From Escherichia coli (GTDB taxonomy: Bacteria > Pseudomonadota > Gammaproteobacteria > Enterobacterales > Enterobacteriaceae), in assembly GCF_011045215.1 (NCBI RefSeq), contig NZ_CP049201.1: a stretch of DNA of 64,000 nucleotides; one strand, given 5' to 3'. The notes under the pieces are model-generated. The model ran no database searches, was not told where the DNA came from, and saw nothing but the letters and a program-made list of their open reading frames with translations. Positions 29,885-48,109 of this stretch are shown here, piece after piece. The position numbers were made by a program, and so were the translations under genes. Every line of letters begins with the position of its first letter. The stretch's first letter is position 1.

Positions 29885-30841
29885 TTACTTCCTCAACCCC
29901 GCAAACGCCGCCCGAATCTCATCCTCCGGCAGCTGAATCCCGATAAACACCATCGTGCTATGCGGTTTTTCATCGCCCCACGGGCGGTCCCAGTCGGCGC
30001 TGTAGAGGCGCTGGACGCCCTGGAACAGCAGGCGGTTAGGTTCGCCGTCAATCCATAGCATCCCTTTGTAACGCAGTAGTTTATCCGCCGATTCCAGCAG
30101 CAGGTTTTCCATCACCCGGGAAACTTCGCTGATATCTACCGGGTAATCCAGTTCCACCACAATCGACGAAATATCGTTTTGTTTATCCGCGATAAAGTGG
30201 AAACGCGGTTTGGTGCTGACGACGTTCTCTTCCAGCATAAAACCGTTGGTGTTGAACAGCAGGCCCAGGTCGATGTCGCCGTGGGTAACTGTGTAGATCG
30301 GTGCACGGGCGTTGATGCGCGCCAGGCGTTCGCGCAGTTTTTCTGCTTCGCCTGCGACGTCGGTTTTGGTCAGCAGAATACGGTCGGCGTAGCCCACCTG
30401 GGACTGGGCGATGGTGAACTGGTTCATCTGCTCATCGGCATGTACCGCATCCACCAGCGCAATCACGCCGTCCAGCAGGTAGCGCTGGCATAAAATCTCA
30501 TGGGAGAAAAAGGTCTGAATAATCGGGCCGGGATCGGCCATGCCGGTGCATTCAATCACCAGACGATCGAACTGAATATTGCCCTTGTCGAGATTATCCA
30601 GCAGGTCGAGTAGTGCGTCTTCCAGCTCGTTGGAGCGCGAACAGCAGATGCAGCCGTTGGTCAGCGTTTTGATCTGCGTGGCGCGGTCGCCAATCAATTG
30701 ATCATCAACGGAGACTTCGCCGAATTCGTTTTCAATCACGGCAATCTTGTAGCCGTGTTGTTCGTTAAGAATATGGCGCAGCAGGGTGGTTTTGCCCGCG
30801 CCTAAAAAACCGGTGAGTAGGGTAACTGCAATCGGGTTCAT
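29885..30841 (-). CDS. yjiA: CobW/P47K-family (COG0523) GTPase
   Basis: ORF 29885..30925 trimmed to MNPIAVTLLTGFLGAGKTTLLRHILNE... (318 aa); Walker A and CxCC metal motif (GCICCS). Confidence 0.85.
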   Translation of the reverse strand: MNPIAVTLLTGFLGAGKTTLLRHILNEQHGYKIAVIENEFGEVSVDDQLIGDRATQIKTLTNGCICCSRSNELEDALLDLLDNLDKGNIQFDRLVIECTGMADPGPIIQTFFSHEILCQRYLLDGVIALVDAVHADEQMNQFTIAQSQVGYADRILLTKTDVAGEAEKLRERLARINARAPIYTVTHGDIDLGLLFNTNGFMLEENVVSTKPRFHFIADKQNDISSIVVELDYPVDISEVSRVMENLLLESADKLLRYKGMLWIDGEPNRLLFQGVQRLYSADWDRPWGDEKPHSTMVFIGIQLPEDEIRAAFAGLRK

Positions 30842-30851
30842 GCTCTCTCCA

Positions 30852-31055
30852 TTAACAACAGCGCATACCGCCTTTACCATCGCCGCCGTAGCGCGCGTTC
30901 TGGCGTTCGCGGAAGAATTCTTCATAGCTCATGTACGGCTTGTCGGGATGGTTGGTCTTCATATGCTCGACGTAGTTGTCGTAGTCTGGAATGCCAATCA
31001 ACATCTTCGCCGCCTGGCCGAGATATTTTTTTGCCTGTCCTAAGTTACCAAACAT
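30852..31055 (-). CDS. yjiX: DUF466-family small protein
   Basis: ORF 30852..31181 trimmed to [32 protein letters not shown]... (67 aa); the longer ORF would read through REP sequence. Confidence 0.8.
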
Positions 31056-31103
31056 TTTGCCTTCCAGATATGCGTAAAGCCCGGAAGGTCCGGGCTGGGG
31101 ATT

Positions 31104-31182
<79 letters not shown>

Positions 31183-31185
31183 CGG

Positions 31186-33336
31186 TTAGTGGTGCGAAGA
31201 GATCTTCACGCCGCCTTCCGGGATTGGAACGTACGGTGTTTCTTTGTCAGTACGTTTGTCGCTGTTACGCACCGCAAGCCAGGTTTTGAAACCGTAGAAG
31301 ATGATGCTGTACACCACAATCAGGAACAGAATACTCAGGCCTGCGTTGGTGTAGTTGTTCACAACGATGTGGTTCATGTTGGCAATCTGCTGCGCCGTCA
31401 GGTCAGTACCGTTAGAAATCTTCTCTTTGTACTGGCTTGCCATGTAGAAGAAGCCTTCCATCTGCGGGTTGGTGCTGAACAGTTTCAGACCCAGCGCCCA
31501 GGTGGTGCAGATAAGCAGCCATACAGCCGGAACAACAGTTACCCAGATGTATTGGGTGCGCTTCATCTTAATCAGCACAACGGTGCCCAGTACCAGCGCT
31601 ACGGCTGCCAGCATCTGGTTGGAGATACCGAACAGCGGCCACAGGCTCTTAACGCCGCCCAGCGGATCGACCACGCCCTGATACAGCAGGTAGCCCCACA
31701 GACCCACACAGCCCGCAGTACCGATGATACCGGCAACCAGAGAGTCGGTTTTTTTCAGGAACGGGATGAAGTTACCCAGCAGGTCTTGCAGCATAAAGCG
31801 GCCAGAACGGGTACCCGCATCCAGCGCGGTCAGGATGAACAGGGCTTCGAACAGAATACCGAAGTGATACCAGAAGCCCATGTCAGCCATCGGCAGCACT
31901 TTGTGGAACACATGAGCGATACCTACCGCCAGCGTCGGCGCACCACCTGCACGGTTCAGGACAGAAGGCTCACCAATGTCTTTCGCGGTTTGCAGGATCT
32001 GCTCTGGCGAAATCACGAAGCCCCAGGAGCTGACGGTCGCCGCCGCGTGTGCGGTAACGTCTTTCAGCTGCGCCATGATGATCGGCGCGTTCTCGCCACC
32101 CATTTCATGCAGGTTAGGCATGGTGATGCCAAGGCCAGCAGGCGGGGTGTTCATCGCGAAGTAAAGACCCGGTTCGATGATGGACGCTGCAACCAGCGCC
32201 ATAATCGCCACGAAGGACTCCATCAGCATTGCGCCGTAGCCGATGAAACGCGCGTCGGTTTCGTTAGCCAGCAGTTTCGGCGTCGTACCGGAAGAGATCA
32301 GCGCGTGGAAGCCAGATACCGCACCACAGGCGATGGTGATGAACAGGAACGGGAACAGAGCGCCTTTCCACAGCGGGCCAGTACCGTCAATGTACTGGGT
32401 CATCGCAGGCATTTTCAGTTCCGGGTTCAGCACCACGATACCCAGCGCCAGGCCGACGATAACGCCGATTTTCAGGAAGGTTGCCAGATAGTCGCGCGGT
32501 GCGAGGATCAGCCACACCGGCAGCAGTGCGGAAACAAACGCATAGCCAATCAGCGCGAAGGTAATGGTGGTGTCTTTAAAGGTCAGTGCCGGACCCCAGT
32601 ACGGATCGTGAGCAATCACGCCACCGAAGTAGATAGAGGCAACCAGCAGCACGATACCAATGACAGAGACTTCACCTACACGCCCCGGACGAATAAAGCG
32701 CATATAGATACCCATAAACAGCGCAATCGGTACGGTTGAGCAAACGGTGAAGACACCCCACGGACTTTCGGCCAGGGCTTTAACCACAATCAGCGCCAGG
32801 ACGGCAAGGATGATGATCATGATTAAGAAACAGCCAAACAGCGCGATAGTCCCCGGTACTGGTCCCATCTCTTCTTTGATCATCTCACCGAGAGATGCGC
32901 CGTTACGGCGAGAGGAGATAAACAGCACCATAAAGTCCTGTACCGCACCGGCCAGTACTACCCCCGCCAGCAGCCACAGCGTGCCAGGTAGGTAGCCCAT
33001 CTGCGCGGCGAGAACCGGACCAACCAGCGGACCAGCACCGGCGATAGCGGCGAAGTGGTGACCAAACAACACGTAACGGTTGGTCGGAACGTAGTTCAGA
33101 CCGTCGTTGTTAATAACCGCAGGCGTCGCGCGCGTGGGGTCGAGTTTCATCACCTTCTGGGCGATATACAAACTGTAGTAGCGATACGCCACCAGATACA
33201 CCGACACCGAGGCGACCACGATCCACAGGGCGCTGACGTGCTCCCCCCGACGTAATGCAACTACCGCGAGGCAGAATGCACCGATGATTCCGAGAATCAC
33301 CCAGGGTATGTGCTTGAATAGTTTTTTCGTATCCAT
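31186..33336 (-). CDS. btsT: CstA-family pyruvate/H+ symporter
   Basis: ORF 31186..33351 trimmed to [19 protein letters not shown]... (716 aa); polytopic membrane protein; synteny (yjiY). Confidence 0.85.
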
Positions 33337-33728
33337 AGTAAAACCTGGCATTTTACTCGTCGTCTTTTGGCTTACAGGTGCGGCAGCTGCGTTCGTTCAC
33401 CCCTGTCACTTACTGTTGTAAGCTCCCGGGGATTCACTCACTTGCTGCCTTCCTGCAAATCAAAATCCATAGAGTAATTTGTTAATCATAGGCCGAAGCC
33501 GTTCTAGGTTTGCGTTGCGTTTGAGGAGGTAAATTGACCGCTATCCTGCAGTGATGTTGCCAGAGATACGCGCGCGTAAAGTAAGGTAAATAACTGAGTG
33601 GTTATTTTAGGGATGTAAGCGGTCAGGAATGGCGGTGAGCGGTTGGGCAAGAATTATTCATCGGGTGGATATGTGATTGAGATCACAATAAAAATGCCCC
33701 TTCGACGAATGCGTGAAGGGGCTGGAGC

Positions 33729-34241
33729 TTAAATCGCAGCTTCCATTTCCAGCATCACCGGATGGAAACGGCGTTTAAAGTAGATAAGTCCGTGACCTTC
33801 TGCACTGAGGATGATGTTTTTAATCTCCACCAGATAGACCAGATGTGTGCCAATTGCCTGCACATCGCGGATCTCACCTTCAAGACTGGCCAGCGAACCT
33901 TTCAGCACCGGCTGCGCCAGCGGACCTTTTTGCCAGCATGAGAGGCTAAAACGCTCTTCCATCGCCATGCCTGTCATGCCCGCGAAGTGGCGCGCCATCA
34001 GTTCCTGCTCATGATTGAGGACGTTGACGCACAACTTGCCGTTGCCCTGAAAAACCGGGTTCATCGCACTGTTGGCGTTAATGCACACCATCAGCGACGG
34101 TGGTGTATCCGTGACCGAGCAGACGGCCGTTGCCGTAATCCCGCATTGTCCGGCGTCGCCCTCGGTGGTGATAATATTTACCGCTGCCGACAGGCTGGCC
34201 ATCGCGTCACGAAAGCGCAGGCGTTGTTCATCTAATTGCAT
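33729..34241 (-). CDS. hpaC: 4-hydroxyphenylacetate 3-monooxygenase, flavin reductase component
   Basis: 170-aa ORF, flavin reductase-like; sits immediately downstream of hpaB. Confidence 0.85.
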   Translation of the reverse strand: MQLDEQRLRFRDAMASLSAAVNIITTEGDAGQCGITATAVCSVTDTPPSLMVCINANSAMNPVFQGNGKLCVNVLNHEQELMARHFAGMTGMAMEERFSLSCWQKGPLAQPVLKGSLASLEGEIRDVQAIGTHLVYLVEIKNIILSAEGHGLIYFKRRFHPVMLEMEAAI

Positions 34242-34258
34242 CTTAACCTCCTGCTGCG

Positions 34259-35821
34259 TTATTTCAGCAGCTTATCCAGCATGTTGATATCGTCGTTGTT
34301 GTGCAGGTGCGGCACAGTCCAGCCGTTCTGGTCGTATTCCGACAGGCAGCGATCAACCATCGCCATCATCTTGTCCATATTGCCGGAGCTTTGTGCCTGG
34401 CGCAGACATTGCAGGCGAATCTCATCCTGGCTACCGGAGTAGTTGATTTCATACAGCTCGTGACGACCACCAAATTCGCTGCCAATGGCGTCCCACATCA
34501 GTTTGAGGATCTTGATGCGCTGGACGTGATCCATACCGTTCGAACCGCGCACATACTTCGCCAGATACTGGTCGATCTGCGGATTGTTCAGGTCACGGGC
34601 ACTGGAAGGGAGGTAGATCAGGCCACTGGTAACGTTGCGTTCGATAATGTTTTTGATCTTCGCGTAGGCCATTGGTGCCAGTACGCGATAGGTTTGCAGT
34701 GCGGCATGATCCGGTAAATAAGCCCCGTTGACCCACGGCGTCGCTTCTGAACACATCGAGTCACTCAATGCCCAGAAGGTGTTGCACCACGCCACCACTT
34801 CACCGAGATCGGCCTGCACACCACGGAACTCCAGGGTGCCGGTACATTCGAGTGATTTTTTCAGCAGTGCCGTGATGAAGTCGAGTTTCACTGCCAGGCG
34901 CACACAGGCTTGCAGCGGATACATACGGGCAAAACCGCCTTCCATCGTCCAGCGACGGCAGCGATCGAAATCGCGGTAGATCAGCACGTTTTCCCACGGG
35001 ATCAGTACGTTATCCATCACCAGGATCGCATCGTTCTCATCGAAGCGGCTGGAGAGCGGGTAGTCGTACGGCGAGCCGGTAGCACCCGCGACCATCTCAT
35101 AAGAGGCGCGGGAGATTAATTTCACGCCATCGGCATCCATTGGCGCAACGAACATCAGTGCGAAGTCCGGGTTTTCGCCCATCACTTGTGCCGAGCCGAA
35201 GCCAATCATGTTGTAGTGAGTCAGCGCCGAGTTGGTGGCAACCACTTTCGCACCACTGACGATAATCCCGGCGTCAGTCTCTTTTTCCAGCTTGATGTAA
35301 ACGTCTTTCACTTTATCGGTCGGCAAATGACGATCGATCGGTGGGTTAACAATCGCGTGGTTAAAGTAGAGGCCAGTTTCCTGAATACGGGTGTACCAGT
35401 TACGGGCGTTCTGCTCGAACTGACCGTAAAAGCCCGGATTCGCGCCCAGTGCGCAACCGAAAGCGGCTTTGTAGTCTGGGGTGCGACCCATCCAGCCATA
35501 GCTCAGGCGTGACCACTCAGCGATGGCGTCGCGTTGCTGGCGCAGGTCGTCGGCACTTTTCGCCACGCGGAAGAATTTATGGGTATAGCCGCCGCTGCCG
35601 GTGTCGGTGTTCCAGCACAGAGAGTCCTGCATTTCCGGTTTGTGTAGCGCGTCGTACAGTTGGGCAACAGACGCTGCCGCATTACGAAATGCCGGATGAG
35701 TAGTGACGTCTTTCACTCGCTCGCCATAGATATAGATCGCGCGACCATCCTGCAGGCTTTTCAGATACTCTTCCCCGGTGAACGGACGTTGGGTACTGGC
35801 GCGGAAATCTTCTGGTTTCAT
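34259..35821 (-). CDS. hpaB: 4-hydroxyphenylacetate 3-monooxygenase, oxygenase component
   Basis: 520-aa ORF matching my memory of HpaB. Confidence 0.9.
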   Translation of the reverse strand: MKPEDFRASTQRPFTGEEYLKSLQDGRAIYIYGERVKDVTTHPAFRNAAASVAQLYDALHKPEMQDSLCWNTDTGSGGYTHKFFRVAKSADDLRQQRDAIAEWSRLSYGWMGRTPDYKAAFGCALGANPGFYGQFEQNARNWYTRIQETGLYFNHAIVNPPIDRHLPTDKVKDVYIKLEKETDAGIIVSGAKVVATNSALTHYNMIGFGSAQVMGENPDFALMFVAPMDADGVKLISRASYEMVAGATGSPYDYPLSSRFDENDAILVMDNVLIPWENVLIYRDFDRCRRWTMEGGFARMYPLQACVRLAVKLDFITALLKKSLECTGTLEFRGVQADLGEVVAWCNTFWALSDSMCSEATPWVNGAYLPDHAALQTYRVLAPMAYAKIKNIIERNVTSGLIYLPSSARDLNNPQIDQYLAKYVRGSNGMDHVQRIKILKLMWDAIGSEFGGRHELYEINYSGSQDEIRLQCLRQAQSSGNMDKMMAMVDRCLSEYDQNGWTVPHLHNNDDINMLDKLLK

Positions 35822-36071
35822 GTCGACCTCTACAGTATTAATCGGAATACGATTGTTAATTTTGTGTGTTGTTTTTGTTATTCAATTGAAGCTTGCAGGG
35901 GCGATTACGGGAAGAGACTTTTGGGACAATGGCTGGTACTTTTCAGGTCGGGTACGGTTTTGTGATCGAGGTCGCTTTTAGCTATTTTTGACGTTACTAA
36001 ATCCCCTTGCTCCAGGCGGAGAAAGAGGAATAGCAGGTGATGCCTGGTTTCCCGTTAAGGCTAAGGGATTT

Positions 36072-36962
36072 TCACGTCACAGGTACTTTTTTGGCACGGT
36101 AAGCACTGGGCGAGCAACCGACTAAACGATTAAAAAAGCGCGCAAAATAAGCCGGATCCTTAAAACCGAGTTGCCAGGCAATATTGTTCACGGCGTTATC
36201 AGAAAACAGCAGCAGCCGCTTGGCTTCTCGCAGCTGCCTGTCGAAAATCAACCGTTTTGGCGGACGGTTGGCAAAGCGGCGGCAGATGTCGGTGAGGCGT
36301 GATTCGGTGATATGCAGTTCGTTAGCGTAATCCGGTACTGTCCAGTGCTGATGAAAATGGCTTTCAATCAGCATATGAAAACGCTGGAACAGTTTTAATT
36401 CTCCGCGCATTCCGCTGGCGGCATGATCGTCAAGTTTTGCGTTACGCAGCAGTAGGGTGAACACTGCCTGTGCCAGGAGCGTCAGGGTGTGTTCCCGACC
36501 AGGCAGTTGTTCTACCGATTCCCGCTCTATCAGTTGCCAATAGTGTTCCAGCGCCGCCAGTTCGTCGGGTTTATCTGCCAGTGACAGGCAAATCCCCGGC
36601 AGGCCGAAGGTTTCCCGAGTGCCCGGATAAAGAACTTCCAGCAGGGGCCAGATCAGATCTTCCCGTACCGTCAATACATGACCGTCGGCGTCAGACTCCG
36701 TAATAAACGCATGAGGTACTGACGGCGGCGTCAGGACAAACAGGGGCGCTTCCACCGAGTAGCGATGATTGTCAAGCTGTAGCTCAATCTGTCCGCTATT
36801 GAGGAAATGCATCTGAAAGTACTGTTCGTGGCGATGTGGCAGCATATGGCGGCCAAAAAATGCCGCCATGCGGGCGAAGGACTGATAATGCACATCGTCC
36901 GTGCCCAGGCTTTCATCGTACTCTTTGCTGATATCAATATTGGCAATCTGACGGTCACACAT
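36072..36962 (-). CDS. hpaA: AraC/XylS-family activator of hpaBC
   Basis: 296-aa ORF with C-terminal AraC-type HTH. Confidence 0.85.
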   Translation of the reverse strand: MCDRQIANIDISKEYDESLGTDDVHYQSFARMAAFFGRHMLPHRHEQYFQMHFLNSGQIELQLDNHRYSVEAPLFVLTPPSVPHAFITESDADGHVLTVREDLIWPLLEVLYPGTRETFGLPGICLSLADKPDELAALEHYWQLIERESVEQLPGREHTLTLLAQAVFTLLLRNAKLDDHAASGMRGELKLFQRFHMLIESHFHQHWTVPDYANELHITESRLTDICRRFANRPPKRLIFDRQLREAKRLLLFSDNAVNNIAWQLGFKDPAYFARFFNRLVGCSPSAYRAKKVPVT

Positions 36963-36971
36963 CGTCGTTCC

Positions 36972-38348
36972 TTACGGGGTCGCTCGCGGACGGGAGGACT
37001 GCATTGGAATTGCCCAGATAATCCCCGCACCAATCACCAGCAGCGCGGCAACAAACCACAATCCACTGTTAAAGCTGCCGGTCAGATCTTTCAACCAGCC
37101 GATCATAAACGGACTTAATGCTGAACCAATGTTGCCAGTGGCGTTGATCACCGCAATACCGATCGCTCGTGCCCGCAGGCTGATGGACTGATCCGGTGTT
37201 GTCCAGAAAATCGCCATTGCGCTGAATGATCCGGTCGAAGCCATAATGATCCCCAGCATCTGGATCATGTTGTGATCAGTTGCCGAAGCCAGTAACCAAC
37301 CAGCGGCAGCGAACAAATAAGGAAGGGCGGTGTGATGCCTTCGTTCCTGGCGGCGATCTGAGTGACGGCTCCAGTAAATCATCCCGAGAATGGTACAAAT
37401 CTGCGGTACGGCGGCCAGCAGGCCGATGGTGATATTACTGCTGCCTTGATTAAAGCTTTGTAGGATCTGCGGTGTCCAGATGCTGATCGCACTAAGTGTG
37501 TTGGTCAGGCAGAAATACGCCAGGGTATACATCATCACCACCGGAGTGAAGATCTCCCGCCACATGCTGCGTTGTTGCATGGCATGGTGGCTGATGGCTC
37601 CCTCTGGCTGAACCAGCGTCAGACGATCGTTATCCATCATCTCTTGCAGGCATTTTTTGTCTTCTTTCGTCAGCCACTTAGCTTTGTCCGGTGAGTCATC
37701 AAGCCAGAACCACACCATGACGCCGAGTAATACCGACGGGAAGCCTTCCAGCAAAAACAGCCACTGCCAGCCTTTTAATGCCATTACGCCATCCAGCGAC
37801 AAAATGTAGCCGGAAACGATCGATCCCAACGCTGTCGTTACCGGCATTGCAACCATAAACAAGGCGTTGGCACGGGCGCGGAAGTAGGCCGGAAACCAGA
37901 AGGTTAAATACAGCAGAATGCCAGGCAGAAAGCCGGCTTCGGTAATGCCAACCAGTATACGCAGTACGTACAAGCTGGTGGGGCCAGTGGCAAACATGGT
38001 GGCAGTAGAGGCGATGCCCCAAAGCACCATGATGGTGGCGATCCAGCGCCGCGCACCGACAATACTCAGCATAATGTTGCTGGGAATGCCGAAGATGACA
38101 TAAGCGGCATAGAACAGGGTGGTAGCGAGGCCAAACATGGTGGCGCTCAGACCGAGGTCGCGTCCCATCGTGAGTCCGGCAAAGCCGATGTTGATGCGAT
38201 CAAGGAACGAGAAGATAAACAGCACGAACAGAAAGACGATCAGGCGGCGAAATAGCTTCTTAATAACCGCCTGTTGTCCGGCAGTCAGCGCTTTATGCTG
38301 ATTCGCCGGATCGATACTCTCCGGTATGGCAGGTGAGGTGTCGCTCAT
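36972..38348 (-). CDS. hpaX: 4-hydroxyphenylacetate MFS permease
   Basis: 458-aa ORF, 12-TM MFS. Confidence 0.85.
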   Translation of the reverse strand: MSDTSPAIPESIDPANQHKALTAGQQAVIKKLFRRLIVFLFVLFIFSFLDRINIGFAGLTMGRDLGLSATMFGLATTLFYAAYVIFGIPSNIMLSIVGARRWIATIMVLWGIASTATMFATGPTSLYVLRILVGITEAGFLPGILLYLTFWFPAYFRARANALFMVAMPVTTALGSIVSGYILSLDGVMALKGWQWLFLLEGFPSVLLGVMVWFWLDDSPDKAKWLTKEDKKCLQEMMDNDRLTLVQPEGAISHHAMQQRSMWREIFTPVVMMYTLAYFCLTNTLSAISIWTPQILQSFNQGSSNITIGLLAAVPQICTILGMIYWSRHSDRRQERRHHTALPYLFAAAGWLLASATDHNMIQMLGIIMASTGSFSAMAIFWTTPDQSISLRARAIGIAVINATGNIGSALSPFMIGWLKDLTGSFNSGLWFVAALLVIGAGIIWAIPMQSSRPRATP

Positions 38349-38395
38349 TTTTCTTCCTCTAATGGGATTTTTGTAGGGTACGACAAGGTTTATGG

Positions 38396-38523
<128 letters not shown>

Positions 38524-39312
38524 TTAATACACGCCGGGCTTAATCGCTGTAGCCTGCGCGCTAAACCGTGCTGCCAGCGCTTCGGCGGCGCGGGCGAGCA
38601 GGGTGGTGTCAACGCCGACGGCGACAAACAGCGCGCCCAGTTCCAGATAGCGTTTTGCCAGTTGCTCATTGGCGATCAGGATCCCTGGCGCTTTACCCGC
38701 TTCGCGGATCTGCACGATCGCCTGCTCAATGGCGGCCTGTACTTCCGGGTGCTGCGGATTACCGGCATAACCCATATCGGCGCTCAGATCCGCCGGGCCG
38801 ATAAACACGCCGTCGACGCCTTCCACGTCCAGAATCTGCGGTAAGTTCTTCATTGCCTCACGCGTTTCGATCTGCACCAGCACGCACATTTGATCGTTGG
38901 CTTTTTGCAGGTAATCAGGAATACGATTCCAGCGCGAGGCTCGGGCCAGCGCACTGCCCACACCGCGAATACCGGCGGGGGGATAACGGGTGGCGCGTAC
39001 CGCTTCACGGGCTTCGTCAGCGTTTTGTACCATCGGCACCAGCAAGGTTTGTGTGCCGACGTCCAGCAGTTGTTTGATTTGCACCGGATCGTTCCACGAC
39101 GGACGTACTACCGGCTGGCTGGGGTAGGGCGCAATCGCCTGTAGCTGGGTGAGCACGGTTTGCACGTTATTCGGCGCGTGTTCACCGTCGATCAACAACC
39201 AGTCGAATCCTGCTCCGGCCAGTAACTCTGCGCTGTAACTGCTACTCAGCCCCAGCCATAATCCGATCTGCGGGCGGCCTGCTTTCAGCGCCGCTTTAAA
39301 ACTGTTTTCCAT
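38524..39312 (-). CDS. hpaI: 2,4-dihydroxyhept-2-ene-1,7-dioate aldolase
   Basis: ORF 38524..39453 trimmed to [22 protein letters not shown]... (262 aa); the longer ORF would begin inside REP/hpaH sequence. Confidence 0.85.
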
Positions 39313-39322
39313 CGTTCTCTCC

Positions 39323-40126
39323 TTAAACAAAGCGGCAGCTAATGGAACCCATGTTGCCGTAATCGACGTGGAAGGTGTCGCCCTTACGCGCCGGAACCGG
39401 GCGGGTGAACGAACCGCCGAGAATGATTTGCCCGGCTTCCAGTTGTACGTCATACGGTGCGAGTTTGTTCGCCAGCCAGGCCACGCCGTTTGCCGGGTGA
39501 TTCAGCACGCCAGCGGCGACGCCGGTTTCTTCAATCACGCCATTGCGATACATCAGGGCGGAGATCCAACGTAGATCCAACTCATCGGGCTTAATGGGAC
39601 GACCACCGAGGATCACCCCGGCATTGGCGGCGTTATCAGAAATGGTGTCGAACACTTTACGCGGGCGCTGGGTTTCCGGATCGATGTTGTGGCAGCGAGC
39701 GTCGATCAGCTCCAGCGCCGGGATCACATAGTCCGTGGCGTTGTAAACGTCGAACAGCGTGCAGTTTGGTCCACGCAGCGGTTTTGCCAGCACGAAAGCC
39801 AGCTCCACTTCAATGCGCGGCACGATAAAGCGATCGGTTGGGATATCGCTGCCATCGTGGAAGAACATGTCATCCAGCAGGGCACCGTAATCCGGCTCGC
39901 TGATTTGTGAGCTGGCCTGCATCGCTTTCGAGGTCAGGCCGATTTTGTGGCCTTTCAGCGTACGGCCTTCGGCAATTTTCAGGCGAACCCATTCGCGCTG
40001 TACGGCGTAGGCGTCTTCGATGGTGATCTCCGGGTAATCCAGCGAGATCGCGCGGATCTGTTCGCGCTGTTTTTCTGCCTGATCCAGACGCTGGGCGATC
40101 AGGGTGTGGGTGTGTTTATCGAACAT
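39323..40126 (-). CDS. hpaH: 2-oxo-hept-4-ene-1,7-dioate hydratase
   Basis: ORF 39323..40144 trimmed to [19 protein letters not shown]... (267 aa). Confidence 0.85.
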
Positions 40127-40144
40127 AGCGATATCCTGTGGCAT

Positions 40145-40180
40145 TGCCGGATGCGGCTGCTCCTTATCATCCGGCCTGGA
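40145..40180. repeat. REP-like palindrome
   Basis: gccggatgcggctgctccttatcatccggcc. Confidence 0.6.
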
Positions 40181-40193
40181 AGCTGGTGCAAAT

Positions 40194-40574
40194 TTATTTA
40201 AACAACGCGTGTACGTTGTTCTGTTTGAAATTCAACGTCGGGTGCAGCTCTGCAATCTCAAATGAAAGCGCCAGGTAACGGCTCTCCATCAGTGAGGCGA
40301 AGTGCGTTTTAATCAGATCAAACAGCATTTCGCCCACTTCCTGACGGCTTTCCAGACTGCGTCCGCTGCCGATTTTTAGCGTCATATGCACAAAGGCGTA
40401 ATCGTGCTTGCCATCAGCCATTTGCCAGGTATCGATCCAGTGCGCCCGGCTACGTATTCCCCCAAGCGGAAAAATCCCCGTTGCCGCCAGTGCAGTGTTA
40501 ACACTGGCAAACAGCTCAGGTAAGCGGGCTTCTTCACGAATATTTTCAGTACATTCCACGATAAAGTGCGGCAT
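40194..40574 (-). CDS. hpaF: 5-carboxymethyl-2-hydroxymuconate isomerase
   Basis: 126-aa ORF, tautomerase-like, N-terminal MPHF. Confidence 0.85.
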
Positions 40575-40583
40575 AAAACGTCC

Positions 40584-41435
40584 TTACGCGGGCAGCGGGA
40601 AAACAGCGTTAACCTGACCGGTGCCAGAGCTTGGGAACAGCTCGGTAATAAACTCCACCTTGCCGTCGTATTTATCCCAGCCGAGCATCCCCAGCAGCAT
40701 CACCGTGTCGTGCATATTGCCTTCGCCGTAGCAGTAGTCGGCGTACTCCGGCAGCATATTGCAAAACTCTTTGAACTGGCCTTCGCGCCACAGCTTCACC
40801 ACACGCTCGTCCATCTGGCGGTCGAACTCGCGGGTGTAGCTGTTCATCCCTTCTTCCGCACGCTGATCGTCAATAAAGCGGTGCGATAACGAACCGCTGG
40901 CAAGGACCGCCACGGTGCCGTCGTACTGTTCGATCGCTTTCAGAATCGCTTCGCCCAGCTTGCGGCTGTCGGCAAAATCGTGAACCGTGCAGAAAGCCGA
41001 AATGGAGACCACTTTGAAGTGCTTGTCTTCATTCATGTAGCGCATCGGTACCAGCGTGCCGTATTCCAGTTTCAGGCTGGGAATATTGTGCGCTTTTGCC
41101 CGCACGCCGAGCTTTAAGGCTTCATCGGCAATAAGCTGCCCCAACTCCGGGTTGCCCTCGTAGTTGTAGGTCATGTCACGAATAAAATGCGGCAGCTCGT
41201 TGCTGGTGTAGACGCCTTCAAAATGGTCTGCACAGTTGATGTGATAAGCACTGTTGACCAGCCAGTGGGTATCGAAAACGATAATGGTATCGACGCCCAT
41301 TTCCCGGCAACGCTTGCTGATCTCTTTATGCCCGTCGATCGCGCCCTGGCGACAACCGTGGTTTTTCCCAGGCAGCTCAGAGAGATACATCGACGGTACG
41401 TGCGTGATCTTGGCGGCTAACGCTAACTTACCCAT
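40584..41435 (-). CDS. hpaD: 3,4-dihydroxyphenylacetate (homoprotocatechuate) 2,3-dioxygenase
   Basis: 283-aa ORF, extradiol dioxygenase. Confidence 0.85.
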   Translation of the reverse strand: MGKLALAAKITHVPSMYLSELPGKNHGCRQGAIDGHKEISKRCREMGVDTIIVFDTHWLVNSAYHINCADHFEGVYTSNELPHFIRDMTYNYEGNPELGQLIADEALKLGVRAKAHNIPSLKLEYGTLVPMRYMNEDKHFKVVSISAFCTVHDFADSRKLGEAILKAIEQYDGTVAVLASGSLSHRFIDDQRAEEGMNSYTREFDRQMDERVVKLWREGQFKEFCNMLPEYADYCYGEGNMHDTVMLLGMLGWDKYDGKVEFITELFPSSGTGQVNAVFPLPA

Positions 41436-41436
41436 A

Positions 41437-42903
41437 TCAGACTCCCCATTTCGGAATTGGATGGTCGCCCATGGAAATGCAGACGTTCTTCATTTCCGCG
41501 AACACTTCGAAGCTGTACTCACCGCCTTCACGCCCGGTGCCGGAGGCTTTTACGCCGCCAAACGGCTGGCGCAGGTCACGCACGTTCTGGGTGTTGACGA
41601 ACACCATGCCTGCTTCGATGCCACGCGCCAGGCGTAGCACTTTGCTGACATCCTGCGTCCAGATGTACGATGCGAGGCCGTACTCCACGTCGTTTGCCAG
41701 GCGTAAGCCTTCGGCTTCATCTTTAAACGGCAGCAGGCAGGCGACCGGCCCGAAAATCTCTTCCTGGGCGACACGCATACGGTTATCAACGTCTGCCAGC
41801 ACCGTTGGGCGCAGGAAGTTGCCGCCTTTCAGGTGCGCAGGCAGGTCAGACGGTTTATCCGGGCCGCCCGCCAGCAGGGTGGCGCCTTCTTCAATGCCGA
41901 GACGGATATAGCCGGAGACTTTTTCCCAGTGCTGCTGGCTGATAAGCGCCCCAACCTGGGTATTCGGATCGGTCGGATCGCCCACGCGCAGACGGTTGGC
42001 GCGTTCGGCAAAGCGTTTAACGAATTCCGGGTAGATGCTTTGCTGAATAAAGATGCGCGAACCGGCGGTGCAGCGCTCGCCGTTGATCGAGAAGATGGTG
42101 AACAGGGCGGCGTCCAGCGCGCGTTCAATATCGGCATCTTCAAAAATCAGCACTGGCGATTTTCCGCCCAGTTCCATGGAGTATTTTTTCAGCCCGGCGT
42201 TTTTCATGATGTTGCGCCCGGTGGCGGTACCGCCGGTGAACGACACGGCACGCACGTCATGATGACGGACCAGCGCATCCCCTGCGGTTGCGCCGTAGCC
42301 CTGTACCACGTTCAGCACGCCCGCCGGAATACCGGCTTCCAGCGCCAGCTCACCCAGGCGGTCAGCGGTCAGCGGGGAGAGTTCTGACATCTTCAGCACC
42401 GCGGTATTGCCCAGCGCAAGACACGGCGCGACCTTCCATGTGGCGGTCATAAACGGCACGTTCCACGGCGATACCAGCGCACAAACGCCTACCGGTTGCA
42501 CCAGCGTGTAGTTGAGCATCTTGTCGTCAACCGGATAGGTCTTGCCGTTCATCTGCTGGCAGACTTCCGCGAAAAATTCAAAGTTGTGAGAAGCGCGTGG
42601 GATCAACACATTTTTGGTCTGATGGATCGGCAGGCCCGTGTCCGCGGTTTCCATCGCGGCGATCTCAGGCACGTTCTGGTCGATCAGATCGCCCAGACGG
42701 CGCATCAGGCGCGCACGCTCTTTCATCGGCAGATTGGCCCATTTCGGGAACGCCTCTTTCGCTGCCGCTACCGCCTGATTGATCTCCGCTTCACCGCCAG
42801 AGGCCACATCCGCCAGCACTTCACCCGTTGCCGGATTGGTGGTCTGGAAGTAGTCGTTACCTGCAACATTTTTGCCGTTGATCCAATGATTTACTTTTTT
42901 CAT
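41437..42903 (-). CDS. hpaE: 5-carboxymethyl-2-hydroxymuconate semialdehyde dehydrogenase
   Basis: 488-aa ORF, aldehyde dehydrogenase family. Confidence 0.9.
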   Translation of the reverse strand: MKKVNHWINGKNVAGNDYFQTTNPATGEVLADVASGGEAEINQAVAAAKEAFPKWANLPMKERARLMRRLGDLIDQNVPEIAAMETADTGLPIHQTKNVLIPRASHNFEFFAEVCQQMNGKTYPVDDKMLNYTLVQPVGVCALVSPWNVPFMTATWKVAPCLALGNTAVLKMSELSPLTADRLGELALEAGIPAGVLNVVQGYGATAGDALVRHHDVRAVSFTGGTATGRNIMKNAGLKKYSMELGGKSPVLIFEDADIERALDAALFTIFSINGERCTAGSRIFIQQSIYPEFVKRFAERANRLRVGDPTDPNTQVGALISQQHWEKVSGYIRLGIEEGATLLAGGPDKPSDLPAHLKGGNFLRPTVLADVDNRMRVAQEEIFGPVACLLPFKDEAEGLRLANDVEYGLASYIWTQDVSKVLRLARGIEAGMVFVNTQNVRDLRQPFGGVKASGTGREGGEYSFEVFAEMKNVCISMGDHPIPKWGV

Positions 42904-44189
42904 TTCGCTGTTTCCTCACTCACAATTCGGTTCACCAGGCGGCCCACGCCTTCTACTTCCACCACTACTTCATCGCCAGGCACCACGTCAGATAAGCCTT
43001 TTGGTGTGCCGGTGGCGATCATGTCGCCCGGATTCAGGGTCATAAATTCGCTTAAGTAGGCGATCAGGAAGGGCACGCTGAAGATCAGATCGGCGGTGGT
43101 GCCTTGCTGGCGTAACTCGCCGTTGACGAAGGTGCGAAGGGTCAGATTATGCGGGTCCGGGATCGCCTCTTTCGGCACGATGGTTGAAAGCATCGGCGTC
43201 AGTCCGTCGCGGCTTTTGACCCGCAGGTTAGGGCGGTAGTAGTTTTCCAGATAGTCGCGAATGGCGTAGTCGTTACACACGGTGTAGCCCGCGACATAAT
43301 CCATGGCATCGGCTTCGCTGACGTTACGAGCCTGCTTGCCAATAACTACCACCAGCTCCGCTTCGTAGTGCATGTATTCAATATTGTTCGGGCGCACGGA
43401 GGTCTGGTTATCGCCAGTGAGGGTATTCGGTGCTTTCAGGAACACCAGCGGCTCTTCCGGTGGCTTAAATTCCAGTTCGCTGGCGTGGTCGGCGTAGTTC
43501 AGGCCGAGGGCAAACAGCGTACCGTGCGGGTGTGGCTGCGTTGGGAAGCTCTTGCGCGTGGTCACTTCACGTTCGTCCACTACCGGATTCTCCAGCGGCG
43601 GGAAACCTTCTGCGAGAACACGCACGCGATCGCCTGGCTGTATTTCCACGCGCGCCTGTGGCGTGCCGAGCAGAATGGCATCGCCTGGATTCAGCGTGGC
43701 AAATTCGCTCAGGGCGCTCAGCAGCTGTGCGGCGTTACGTTGTAAATCGGCGGTATTCCAGTGATCGGCAGGACGCCCGTTGATCTCGGTATAGATAGTC
43801 AGATTATCGACATTGCTGAGAGCCACGGTTTCGCCAATGGGGCAGAATCCATCACGACATTTTGCTTTGATTGCCGGACGGTAAAAGCTCTCTTCCGGCA
43901 GGCTGACGTCGTTAGCCAGCGCATATCCGGCGATGTACTCTGCCGCATCTTCTTCACGTACTTTCGTCGCCGTTTTTCCCACAATCAGCGCAACTGTCGC
44001 ACCGCTCAGTACCTTTTCACCCTGTGGAAAGGGAATCGGTTCACCGCAACCAATCACCGTATTGCGCGGTTTAATAAACCAGACCGCAGTTTTAGGCGGG
44101 GCTTTGTAGGGAGATTGCTGGAACGCTTCCTGCCAGGCATCAAGTTGGCTGCGATGGTTCAACGCTACGGCGAAGATAGTGCCTTTCAT
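42900..44189 (-). CDS. hpaG: Bifunctional HHDD isomerase / OPET decarboxylase
   Basis: ORF 42900..44195 begins at GTG; I trimmed to the ATG of MKGTIFAVALNH... (429 aa); two FAH-fold repeats. Confidence 0.85.
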   Translation of the reverse strand: MKGTIFAVALNHRSQLDAWQEAFQQSPYKAPPKTAVWFIKPRNTVIGCGEPIPFPQGEKVLSGATVALIVGKTATKVREEDAAEYIAGYALANDVSLPEESFYRPAIKAKCRDGFCPIGETVALSNVDNLTIYTEINGRPADHWNTADLQRNAAQLLSALSEFATLNPGDAILLGTPQARVEIQPGDRVRVLAEGFPPLENPVVDEREVTTRKSFPTQPHPHGTLFALGLNYADHASELEFKPPEEPLVFLKAPNTLTGDNQTSVRPNNIEYMHYEAELVVVIGKQARNVSEADAMDYVAGYTVCNDYAIRDYLENYYRPNLRVKSRDGLTPMLSTIVPKEAIPDPHNLTLRTFVNGELRQQGTTADLIFSVPFLIAYLSEFMTLNPGDMIATGTPKGLSDVVPGDEVVVEVEGVGRLVNRIVSEETAK

Positions 44190-44460
44190 TACCACTCCTC
44201 GGATTCGATCATCTTAATCATTAATATGTTAATGATTACTTTTATTCCCGATTGCGTAGTTTGGCAAAAGTAAGTGATGTAAATGTGATCTAATTAACAA
44301 ACTATTTACATTAAAAGATAATAAAATATTAAATATCAGTGTGTTAATAAAACATCCTCAATTTTGATAAAATGAAGAATTGCGGGGGCAGCTCAGTCCC
44401 GGTAACGTGATGATTAATTGTTTCTATATTAATGATTTTGAATTTTTCAGGGGAAAGATA

Positions 44461-44907
44461 ATGCACGACTCACTAACCATTGCGTTGCTCCAGGCGCGAG
44501 AAGCGGCGATGAGTTATTTTCGCCCAATCGTTAAACGGCATAATTTGACTGAGCAACAGTGGCGCATCGTGCGTATTCTGGCGGAAAGCCCATCAATGGA
44601 TTTTCACGATCTGGCGTATCGCGCCTGCATTTTGCGCCCAAGCCTGACCGGGATCCTCACGCGGATGGAACGCGACGGTTTAGTGTTGCGATTAAAGCCG
44701 ATCAATGATCAGCGGAAGCTCTATATCTCGCTGACCAAAGAGGGGCAGGCGCTGTATAACCGCGCTCAGACACAGATTGAAGAAGCCTATCGGCAGATTG
44801 AAGCTCAGTTTACTGCCGAGAAAATGCAACAGTTAACCCATCTGTTAGAGGAATTTATTGCTCTGGGCAATTCCCGACAAGAAGACATCCCGGGCGATAA
44901 TGAATAA
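44461..44907 (+). CDS. hpaR: MarR-family repressor of the hpa meta-cleavage operon
   Basis: ORF 44380..44907 trimmed to MHDSLTIALLQAREAAMSYFRP... (148 aa); divergent from hpaG. Confidence 0.85.
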   Translation: MHDSLTIALLQAREAAMSYFRPIVKRHNLTEQQWRIVRILAESPSMDFHDLAYRACILRPSLTGILTRMERDGLVLRLKPINDQRKLYISLTKEGQALYNRAQTQIEEAYRQIEAQFTAEKMQQLTHLLEEFIALGNSRQEDIPGDNE

Positions 44908-45025
44908 CTTTTTAGTATCTGATAACCAGCGCCTGGTTTTTCCATGGATGGCGGGTTACACCTTTTCATAAAGTTTTTGCTTTCCAGGCCGAAAATCTTG
45001 CATCGGTCCACAGGAAAGAGAAACC

Positions 45026-46699
45026 ATGTTAAAACGTATCAAGATCGTGACCAGCTTACTGCTGGTTTTGGCCGTTTTTGGCCTTTTACAACTGACATCA
45101 GGCGGTCTGTTCTTTAATGCCTTAAAGAATGACAAAGAAAATTTCACTGTTTTACAAACCATTCGCCAGCAGCAATCTACGCTGAATGGCAGCTGGGTCG
45201 CGTTGTTGCAGACGCGTAACACCCTCAACCGCGCGGGTATCCGCTACATGATGGATCAGAATAATATTGGTAGCGGTTCAACCGTTGCTGAGCTGATGCA
45301 GAGTGCCAGTATTTCGCTGAAACAGGCGGAAAAAAACTGGGCAGATTACGAAGCGTTGCCGCGTGACCCGCGTCAGAGCACCGCCGCAGCGGCAGAGATC
45401 AAACGTAATTACGATATTTATCACAATGCGCTGGCGGAGCTGATCCAACTGTTAGGTGCAGGCAAAATCAACGAGTTCTTTGATCAGCCGACCCAGGGAT
45501 ATCAGGACGGTTTCGAGAAGCAGTATGTGGCTTACATGGAGCAAAACGATCGGCTCTATGATATCGCCGTCAGCGATAACAATGCCTCCTACAGCCAGGC
45601 GATGTGGATTCTGGTGGGCGTGATGATCGTCGTACTGGCGGTCATCTTCGCCGTCTGGTTCGGTATTAAAGCCTCGCTGGTAGCGCCAATGAATCGCCTG
45701 ATTGACAGCATTCGTCATATTGCAGGCGGCGATCTGGTGAAACCGATTGAGGTGGATGGCTCTAATGAGATGGGGCAACTGGCAGAGAGTTTGCGCCATA
45801 TGCAGGGAGAGCTGATGCGTACCGTCGGTGATGTGCGCAACGGGGCCAATGCCATCTATAGCGGTGCCAGCGAAATCGCTACCGGCAATAACGATCTCTC
45901 TTCGCGCACCGAGCAACAGGCCGCTTCGCTGGAAGAGACGGCAGCCAGCATGGAGCAACTGACCGCAACGGTGAAACAGAACGCCGAGAATGCGCGCCAG
46001 GCCAGCCACCTGGCGTTAAGTGCTTCTGAAACGGCGCAACGCGGCGGCAAAGTGGTAGATAACGTGGTGCAGACTATGCGTGATATCTCCACCAGTTCGC
46101 AGAAAATCGCCGATATTATCAGCGTAATTGACGGCATTGCCTTCCAGACCAATATTCTGGCTTTGAACGCGGCGGTTGAAGCAGCGCGTGCGGGTGAGCA
46201 AGGACGTGGTTTTGCGGTGGTTGCGGGAGAAGTGCGTAATCTGGCCCAGCGTAGCGCCCAGGCGGCTCGTGAAATTAAAAGCCTGATTGAAGACTCGGTG
46301 GGGAAAGTGGATGTTGGCTCTACGCTGGTCGAAAGCGCCGGGGAAACAATGGCGGAGATTGTCAGCGCCGTGACCCGCGTGACGGACATTATGGGCGAAA
46401 TTGCTTCTGCTTCTGATGAGCAGAGCCGTGGTATCGATCAGGTTGGCTTAGCGGTTGCTGAGATGGACCGGGTAACTCAACAGAACGCCGCGCTGGTGGA
46501 AGAATCTGCCGCTGCCGCCGCCGCGCTGGAAGAGCAGGCCAGTCGCCTGACCGAAGCTGTGGCAGTGTTCCGGATTCAGCAACAGCAGCAACAGCAGCAA
46601 CAGCAGCGTGAAACATCGGCTGTGGTAAAAACCGTGACGCCAGCTACGCCGCGTAAAATGGCAGTGGCAGATAGCGGGGAGAACTGGGAAACGTTTTAA
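45026..46699 (+). CDS. tsr: Methyl-accepting chemotaxis protein I (serine chemoreceptor)
   Basis: 557-aa ORF with periplasmic domain, HAMP, methylation helices and C-terminal NWETF pentapeptide; contains a 10-Gln tract. Confidence 0.9.
46577..46606 (+). repeat. CAG/CAA trinucleotide repeat encoding Q10 in the Tsr C-terminal linker
   Basis: cagcaacagcagcaacagcagcaacagcag read directly. Confidence 0.9.
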
Positions 46700-46710
46700 T
46701 CGCCATAAAA

Positions 46711-46740
46711 ATGCCCGATAAGCAAAATGTTATCGGGCAT
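46711..46740. terminator. Bidirectional rho-independent terminator between convergent tsr and lgoT
   Basis: atgcccgataa...ttatcgggcat perfect stem, preceded by A-run and followed by T-rich context. Confidence 0.65.
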
Positions 46741-46747
46741 AGGGAGT

Positions 46748-48109
46748 TTAATCTTTACGCGGGTCGTTGATCGGCTGACGAACCAGGAAGATGTACGCCA
46801 GTGCTCCCGCTGCGGTGACGCAACCGCAAATGATTAGTGCCAGACGGAATGAGTGGGTTGTATCAACAATAAAACCAGTAATGATCGGCGCGAAAGAGGC
46901 GCAGATGAAGCTGGCAAAGTTCTGGATACTGCCCACCGACGCAGTCATGCGAGAAGCAACTGCGACGTGGATCAAGCCCCAGCAGGATGTTCCGGCAAAG
47001 TGAATACAGAACAGTGCCATGCCAATCAGCAGAACCGCCATCATGGATGTTGTCGCTTGTGGTACTATCAGCGTAAAGGCGGCAGAACAGAACATCCCGG
47101 CAATAATGCAGATCTTACGGCTTTTAATCGGAGCCATTCCCCCTTTGACCAGCCAGTCAGTAACGTAACCGTTGACCAGCATCCCGGCAGCCCCAAACAG
47201 GAAAGGGATAGCCGCCATCAACCCTGTGCTTTTTAAATCCAGGTTATAGGCTGTTTGCAGGTAACCAGGAAGCCAGGCCAGATACAGCCACGCAGTGTAG
47301 TTGATGCCACTGAATCCGAGCATCATTCCCCACATTGTGCGGTTACGGAACAGGCTGCGCCATTCGGCAAAACTGAGCGGATCTCGGCGGGCATTGACGC
47401 TACCTGCATTGAGATAAGCTTGTTCAACGGCAGTCAGTTCTACGTGCTCGCGGTTGCGATAGAGCATATACCAGCCAATGGCGAGAAAAATCCCCAGTAC
47501 ACCAATGGTAATAAACATCCCGCGCCAGCCCATCACCAGCATCATCGCCGCCAGAATCGGTGGGCTTACGGCAACGCCAATGGTAGAAGCTGCGTTGAAG
47601 AAGCCCATCGGGCGTCCGCGCTCTTTGATGTTGAACCAGTCGTTAATGACTTTTACACCGCATGGGTTCATCGGCGCTTCACCAATCCCCATACCGATAC
47701 GCACCAACACGAACTGCGTAAAGCTGTGCACCATGCCAGACATGGCCTGGAACAGTGACCAGAAGAACATCCCCAGTCCCAGCATCAGGCGTGGGCCTTT
47801 ACGATCCAATAGTGGGCCGCAAGGAAGTTGCGCAATGCCGTAAGCGAGTGAAAACACGGAGAGCAAAGCGCCGATTTCGGTGGCACTTAATCCCAATTCT
47901 TCACGAATCGTTAAATTTGCTACCGACAGCGAACTGCGGTCGAGATAATTGATTACCGCCGCAAAAAATAATAACAACATGGCGGTGGTTTGAATGCGTT
48001 TAATTCGGGTACTGCGTTGAACTAATCCATCTGGTGGCACGGGAATATCTGCCGACGAAGATGGAGTAAATGAAGAACGCGGATCGAGGGTGATATTTTC
48101 TTTTTCCAC
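46748..48109 (-). CDS. lgoT: L-galactonate MFS transporter
   Basis: 453-aa ORF; MFS sugar-acid transporter; synteny (yjjL). Confidence 0.8.
   Translation of the reverse strand: MEKENITLDPRSSFTPSSSADIPVPPDGLVQRSTRIKRIQTTAMLLLFFAAVINYLDRSSLSVANLTIREELGLSATEIGALLSVFSLAYGIAQLPCGPLLDRKGPRLMLGLGMFFWSLFQAMSGMVHSFTQFVLVRIGMGIGEAPMNPCGVKVINDWFNIKERGRPMGFFNAASTIGVAVSPPILAAMMLVMGWRGMFITIGVLGIFLAIGWYMLYRNREHVELTAVEQAYLNAGSVNARRDPLSFAEWRSLFRNRTMWGMMLGFSGINYTAWLYLAWLPGYLQTAYNLDLKSTGLMAAIPFLFGAAGMLVNGYVTDWLVKGGMAPIKSRKICIIAGMFCSAAFTLIVPQATTSMMAVLLIGMALFCIHFAGTSCWGLIHVAVASRMTASVGSIQNFASFICASFAPIITGFIVDTTHSFRLALIICGCVTAAGALAYIFLVRQPINDPRKD

Follow-up and report, generated by a model that had tools for sequence, protein, structure and literature searches.

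A ten-glutamine tract at the start of the Tsr tether in Escherichia coli is probably a rare, nearly neutral allele of an in-frame 9-bp repeat

Our analysis of a 64,000-nucleotide stretch of Escherichia coli DNA (hereafter, the window) centered on a run of ten glutamines (Q10) in the chemoreceptor Tsr. The best explanation, and one that we consider quite probable, is that this run is a rare natural expanded allele of an in-frame 9-bp repeat in tsr that originated by slippage and is nearly neutral. Specifically, replication slippage on CAG(CAACAGCAG)n would add or remove whole 9-bp units, each encoding three glutamines, such that the common n=2 (Q7) allele would have gained one unit to become the n=3 (Q10) allele of the window. 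The added glutamines would then slightly shift the reach of the tethered CheR and CheB. The tract itself is an in-frame coding tandem repeat, composed of perfect head-to-tail copies, and its alleles step by whole units; we infer both the slippage mechanism and the small functional effect.

The tract falls within a plus-strand coding sequence (45026..46699; 557 aa plus stop) for the serine chemoreceptor, whose domains are TarH, HAMP, and MCPsignal. The Pfam matches to PF02203 (9e-55), PF00672 (2e-12), and PF00015 (3e-62) all exceeded the curated cut-offs, and they lie in the order by which membership was judged, namely TarH ligand-binding, HAMP, and MCP signalling. By sequence identity and shared neighbourhood, the gene is tsr, the orthologue of the K-12 gene: it is flanked by hpaR and lgoT, with lgoT downstream, as in K-12, and the RefSeq label of the matching gene was tsr in 5,382 genomes. 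The surroundings (window ~30000-46750) vary among strains. Upstream of tsr, the window holds an hpa (4-hydroxyphenylacetate) cluster, which is missing in K-12, where btsT adjoins, while MurR/RpiR or hypothetical genes take this position in other strains. Downstream, most strains have lgoT, but several, among them LF82 and A0 34/86, have a TRAP transporter. A minus-strand open reading frame (ORF) that crosses the tract (46389-46616, 75 aa) showed nothing of note, and a promoter and terminator scan of 46300-46900 returned only a hairpin between tsr and lgoT (46711-46740).

Positions 46577..46606 on the plus strand read CAG CAA CAG CAG CAA CAG CAG CAA CAG CAG, that is, ten glutamine codons (Tsr residues 518-527) in the frame of the 557-aa ORF, preceded by the ATT codon of Ile517 (46574..46576, plus strand) and followed by CGT (Arg). 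The original prediction, made from the letters of the window, described ten glutamines encoded by alternating CAG and CAA in the linker that tethers the NWETF pentapeptide. The ten in-frame codons are there, and so is the linker location, since the tract opens with the first residue (518) of the non-conserved tail. Both codons also occur, but they do not strictly alternate; the unit is instead the 9-mer CAGCAACAG, for which Tandem Repeats Finder reported a period of 9, 3.4 copies, 100% matches, and a score of 62 (the in-frame 9-bp repeat, written as CAG(CAACAGCAG)x3, amounts to 3.33 copies). Across 84 aligned orthologues, R516 and I517 are conserved at >=90%, and conservation drops after I517 and returns at the pentapeptide. 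Beyond the tract, the translated ORF continues with the remaining 25 aa of non-conserved linker (46607..46681, plus strand) and ends in SGENWETF and a stop codon, with NWETF itself at 46682..46696 on the plus strand (for its role, see PMC7390727, PMC4692393, and PMC8609364).

Homopolymeric amino acid runs of at least five residues are scarce in the window. Among its six-frame ORFs of at least 100 aa, the only two were the Q10 run and a run of six alanines (A6) in methylation helix 2 of the same gene (46508..46525, plus strand), which argues that the Q10 run is not a product of chance. Repeats of other kinds occur elsewhere in the window. A 735-aa pentapeptide-repeat protein (8596-10803, minus strand; Pfam PF00805, 6e-34), adjoined by an SdiA-regulated family protein (7487-8329, minus strand), has a C-terminal part built from 8-aa units (NDSTDKQA-like) that correspond to an in-frame 24-bp tandem repeat of 9.7 copies (8707-8938), larger than the tsr tract. 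Further, a 52-bp repeat in two copies (38389-38504) has an intergenic, REP/BIME-type likeness (GCCGGATGCGGCGTAAACGCCTTATCCGGCC).

To place the Q10 allele within the species, we searched 5,426 complete E. coli genomes, 5,382 of which have the matching part of tsr, with queries made up of the tract and 60-nt flanks, in the native Q10 version and in synthetic Q4, Q7, and Q13 versions. A 9-bp gap lowers the identity band of a match, and bands were thus used as length classes. In these classes, each of which pools differences of one to two codons, Q7 accounted for ~4,057 genomes (75% of the 5,382), Q4 for ~1,251 (23%), and Q10 for 71 (1.3%). The Q13 class comprised three genomes (0.06%), as judged solely from ranked full-length matches, given that the bands of >=95% for this query were contaminated by partial Q4 alignments. 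The class counts add up to 5,382, and the four queries agree, although the proportions reflect a genome set biased by laboratory derivatives of K-12 and BL21 (Q4) and by re-sequenced strains, such as HS, which has four records. Q10 carriers include HS, LF82, NRG 857C, A0 34/86, O104:H21 94-3024, and several mouse-gut isolates, and their sources (human, pig, chicken, frog, mouse, dog, river water, and soil) follow no evident habitat pattern.

These frequencies recast the comparison with K-12 from which the original prediction started. Its figure of about four glutamines in K-12 Tsr was accurate: the MG1655 gene reads ATT CAG CAA CAG CAG CGT, a Q4 tract in a 551-aa protein. Calling the tract of the window longer is correct relative to K-12 (six more glutamines), but the excess over the species norm of Q7 is only three. 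K-12 is a poor yardstick because the norm, at ~75% of genomes, is Q7, and K-12 itself holds a minority short allele (Q4, ~23% of complete genomes, many of them laboratory strains). Nor do K-12 and most strains share the length seen in the window, which was found in the 71 of 5,382 complete genomes noted above. The proposal of a slippage-prone microsatellite fits the exact 9-bp series of alleles and their occurrence on many haplotypes, but the slipping unit is not a trinucleotide.

At the level of individual alleles, we fetched 23 tsr genes from across the length classes, picked by tract length and not at random, along with six further n=3 loci. All 30 E. coli alleles that were read have the form CAG(CAACAGCAG)n, with n from 1 to 4, save for a one-base change to histidine in two. 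Tracts of one, two, three, and four units yield proteins of 551, 554, 557, and 560 aa, respectively, with no intermediate tract lengths among them. Gene lengths that seemed to suggest Q6 or deleted tracts arise outside the tract, through a change from A6 to A5 or through a 33-nt deletion, and the glutamine tract in those genes is of Q7 length. The histidine change is a CAG-to-CAT substitution at the penultimate codon of the tract (equivalent to 46601-46603), seen in the Q7-length allele of SCU-172 and the Q10-length allele of 2014C-3338. A search with the full-length Tsr protein listed 120 matches, all from E. coli or Shigella, at 96-99% identity and with a common length of 554 aa; among these listed matches, 11 of the 120 database proteins contain QQQQQHQ.

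Two of the changes outside the tract merit description in their own right. The alanine run, a second short repeat of tsr that is also polymorphic in length, is written in GCC and GCT with a 6-bp periodicity, and it is A5 rather than A6 in SFAD3 and SCU-172, which have 553-aa proteins. In strain 500111, tsr has lost 33 nt in frame between two direct repeats of 10 bp, GCCGCGCTGG (window 46487-46496 and 46520-46529), and with them 11 residues (~490-500), including the methylation-site pair E492/E493. The receptor of this strain is probably impaired.

Comparison of whole Tsr proteins showed how little besides the tract sets the window apart. The K-12 MG1655 gene (b4355) is alike in identity, lgoT neighbour, domains, and pentapeptide, while being exactly 18 bp, or two units, shorter, with a 30-aa tether; outside the tract, the two proteins are distinguished by E92Q, H178Y, A531T, and E541G (window numbering, tract removed). 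The commonest E. coli Tsr, of 554 aa (WP_000919571.1; found in O157:H7, 503025, PapM-32-1, and JX21CE8), is identical to that of the window outside the tract, such that one more CAACAGCAG unit, adding QQQ, is the sole amino acid difference. At the DNA level, the nearest alleles to that of the window are likewise Q7, from PapM-32-1 (5 differences) and O157:H7 (7). The exact 557-aa protein occurs on 129 public E. coli contigs, and haplotypes with 9-32 synonymous differences from the window, lying in three upstream contexts, encode it as well. More broadly, E. coli Tsr proteins vary remarkably little, differing outside the tract at 0-4 residues (21 alleles comparable by position), with 99 variable DNA sites (24 alleles), and the replacements among the fetched E. 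coli alleles are mostly in the linker, at positions 520-541. Among the 5,426 complete E. coli genomes, the best identity was 99.2% for tsr of the window and 98.8% for window positions 30000-54000, which indicates that the source strain lacks a close relative in the collection for this region.

Outside E. coli, the picture is one of conserved length with little repetition. We obtained Tsr orthologues from species representatives of 80 other Enterobacteriaceae by scanning contigs with the N-terminal 291 aa. Tsr is 554 aa long in 47 of the 80, and the tail, measured from VF[RH] to the pentapeptide, has a mode of 33 aa (47 of the 80 species) and a range of 30-36 aa, with one of 48 aa. A run of more than three glutamines was found in none of these 80 tails, which usually start with IQQEQQ[RK]. 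Two genomes of separate Escherichia species have IQQTQQRQH and IQQAQQRQH at the Q7-equivalent length. Q7 has the length typical of the family and is therefore presumably the ancestral state in E. coli, in which case the Q4 of K-12 is a contraction and Q10 and Q13 are expansions. By the same comparison of sequences, only E. coli has the perfect, putatively slippage-prone repeat.

The position of the tract offers some guidance as to its effect. According to PMC4692393, the conserved positions of the kinase-control domain end with residue 517, and PMC10561060 counts a Tsr tether of 30 aa from I517. Since the tract starts where the conserved C-terminal helix ends, the Tsr of the window has a tail of 36 residues; the corresponding figure is 33 for the majority of E. 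coli, 30 for K-12, and 34 for Tar. For each of four Tar tether lengths (22, 29, 34, and 46 aa), the step responses yielded data on adaptation that a model fitted, the corresponding length changes (-12, -5, and +12 residues) had graded effects, and the fitted position of the CheR peak shifted by 0.128 +/- 0.048 nm per residue (PMC10561060). Further, linkers of 29-39 aa coexist naturally within one organism (bioRxiv 10.1101/2024.03.07.583918). By extrapolation of the Tar slope, the peak for Q10 would lie ~+0.4 nm from that for Q7 and ~+0.8 nm from that for K-12, and, with the chain parameters of PMC10561060, the distribution would broaden by 5-10%. That Tar variants from 22 to 46 aa show graded shifts suggests that the effect of Q10 is small. 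The idea in the original prediction that linker length might tune adaptation kinetics is plausible, and the expected effect would be small. Most likely, it is small at most and the allele is nearly neutral, a reading extrapolated from Tar constructs whose sequence changes differ from that seen here. Alternatively, the rarity of Q10 and Q13, along with the conserved 33-aa tail, may reflect a mildly deleterious rather than neutral effect of longer tails.

A different possibility is that the glutamine run acts less on the length of a flexible tether than on the helix before it, prolonging the C-terminal receptor helix into a longer, semi-rigid stalk, moving the origin of the tether, and possibly altering the signalling bias of the receptor as well. 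In AlphaFold2 models, the helix does run past the tract, ending at residue 524 for Q4 and at residue 531 for Q10, and pLDDT falls below 50 from residue 516 and from residue 526, respectively. AlphaFold is inclined to over-predict polyQ helices, however, and the models are poor, as they depict a monomer of an obligate dimer with a mean pLDDT of ~62, a pTM of 0.33, and a pLDDT of 50-58 in the tract. By analogy, the polyQ tract beside a helix in the androgen receptor can be helical, with a helicity that grows with its length (PMC6497633), but the Tar tail is described as unstructured by EPR in papers citing Bartelli & Hazelbauer (2011). Taken together, we regard extension of the helix as unlikely.

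The near-neutral slippage allele that we favour is also viewed against the history of the tract, which has changed length repeatedly. In a neighbour-joining tree of tsr (1,623 ungapped columns, 99 of them variable; 24 alleles), tract lengths are scattered, and a Fitch count requires at least 11 length changes (bootstrap 9-13), a figure that is no rate, given that the alleles were chosen by tract length. The differences that separate other Q10 alleles from that of the window come to within 19 nt of the tract upstream and 7 nt downstream, and Q10 alleles are found in three upstream contexts (hpaR, MurR/RpiR, and others) and two downstream contexts (lgoT and the TRAP transporter). The presence of Q10 on many tsr haplotypes points to recurrent slippage and, as far as these sequences go, indicates that the same tract length arose independently on different backgrounds.

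Such recurrence might be taken as a sign of an adaptive tuning knob, in which selection maintains Q4, Q7, Q10, and Q13 by niche because the length of the tether governs how fast and how precisely cells adapt to gradients of serine or AI-2. Consistent with this are the measurable shifts in adaptation caused by tether length in Tar (PMC10561060), the at least 9-13 tract-length changes among 24 alleles against a protein that otherwise differs at 0-4 residues, and the recognisable lineages that carry Q10 (HS, LF82/NRG857C, O104:H21, and the mouse-gut isolates). However, a high rate of slippage would give recurrent change without selection, the step is small (3 aa, ~0.4 nm), Q10 (1.3%) and Q13 (0.06%) are rare, and the carriers of Q10 lack a habitat pattern. 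In addition, a tail of ~33 aa in 80 other species resembles stabilising more than diversifying selection. We thus find selection by niche improbable. A broader version, which we hold to be quite improbable, is that E. coli has turned the QQxQQRQ start of the tail into a pure repeat that serves as a length dial specific to the species, with lineages switching among tethers of 30, 33, 36, and 39 aa, which may be partly helical, and so shifting where CheR and CheB act, along with how fast and how precisely adaptation to serine or AI-2 proceeds, in a niche-dependent manner. Were this the case, chemotaxis research would for decades have relied on a K-12 reference receptor with an atypically short tether.

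Recurrent slippage also has to be weighed against a single origin of Q10, followed by its spread between lineages through homologous recombination. In favour of this scenario, E. coli recombines, and tsr alleles show mosaicism, in that their tree departs from simple phylogroup lines and the genes flanking tsr vary. Yet, within 373 nt of flank, the Q10 lineages examined each show a haplotype of their own, and the differences at 19 nt and 7 nt would require imported segments shorter than ~60 bp. Moreover, each linker haplotype examined has length variants, and the tract interrupted by histidine occurs at two lengths, which leaves a single origin very improbable. A sequencing or assembly artefact, for which nothing specific speaks beyond general caution about mis-assembled repeats, can be dismissed with near certainty, given that a 30-bp tract is far below read length and that the identical tract recurs in 71 complete genomes and the exact protein on 129 public contigs. 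We also considered a phase-variable ON/OFF locus and rejected it because every allele stays in frame; the 9-bp unit lies within the coding sequence, and all alleles end in NWETF.

With the preferred reading of a rare, slippage-derived, and nearly neutral allele, the Q10 tract is nothing out of the ordinary: a repeat polymorphism that keeps the reading frame of a well-known protein, and it points to neither a new system nor a new mechanism. Public databases already contain many copies of the exact protein, annotated as a methyl-accepting chemotaxis protein, while our literature search found no paper describing the glutamine-repeat polymorphism of tsr. Its practical value is twofold. First, the model K-12 Tsr has a minority tail of 30 aa; a tail of 33 aa is the commonest both in sequenced E. 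coli (around three-quarters) and among 80 other Enterobacteriaceae species, and rare strains have 36 or 39 aa. Second, the natural Q4, Q7, Q10, and Q13 series, near-identical outside the tract, provides ready alleles for tests of Tsr tether length with CheR and CheB that would complement the engineered Tar series.

The closest known counterparts are those engineered Tar variants (PMC10561060), in which the stretch from the receptor body to NWETF was likewise lengthened or shortened and which provide the only quantitative relation between length and response. The Tar tethers were altered at their pentapeptide-proximal end, by larger steps and with another sequence, whereas the Tsr of the window has a natural change, purely of glutamine, at the helix-proximal end. 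More distant parallels are the opa repeats of Notch (PMC4632060) and the androgen receptor's polyQ tract (PMC6497633), which are likewise glutamine runs of CAG and CAA whose length varies among individuals through in-frame slippage. Relative to these, the Tsr tract is bacterial, very short (4-13 glutamines), and changes in steps of 9 rather than 3 bp, and it sits in an enzyme tether, whereas the Notch and androgen-receptor tracts lie in a region of transcription-factor interaction.
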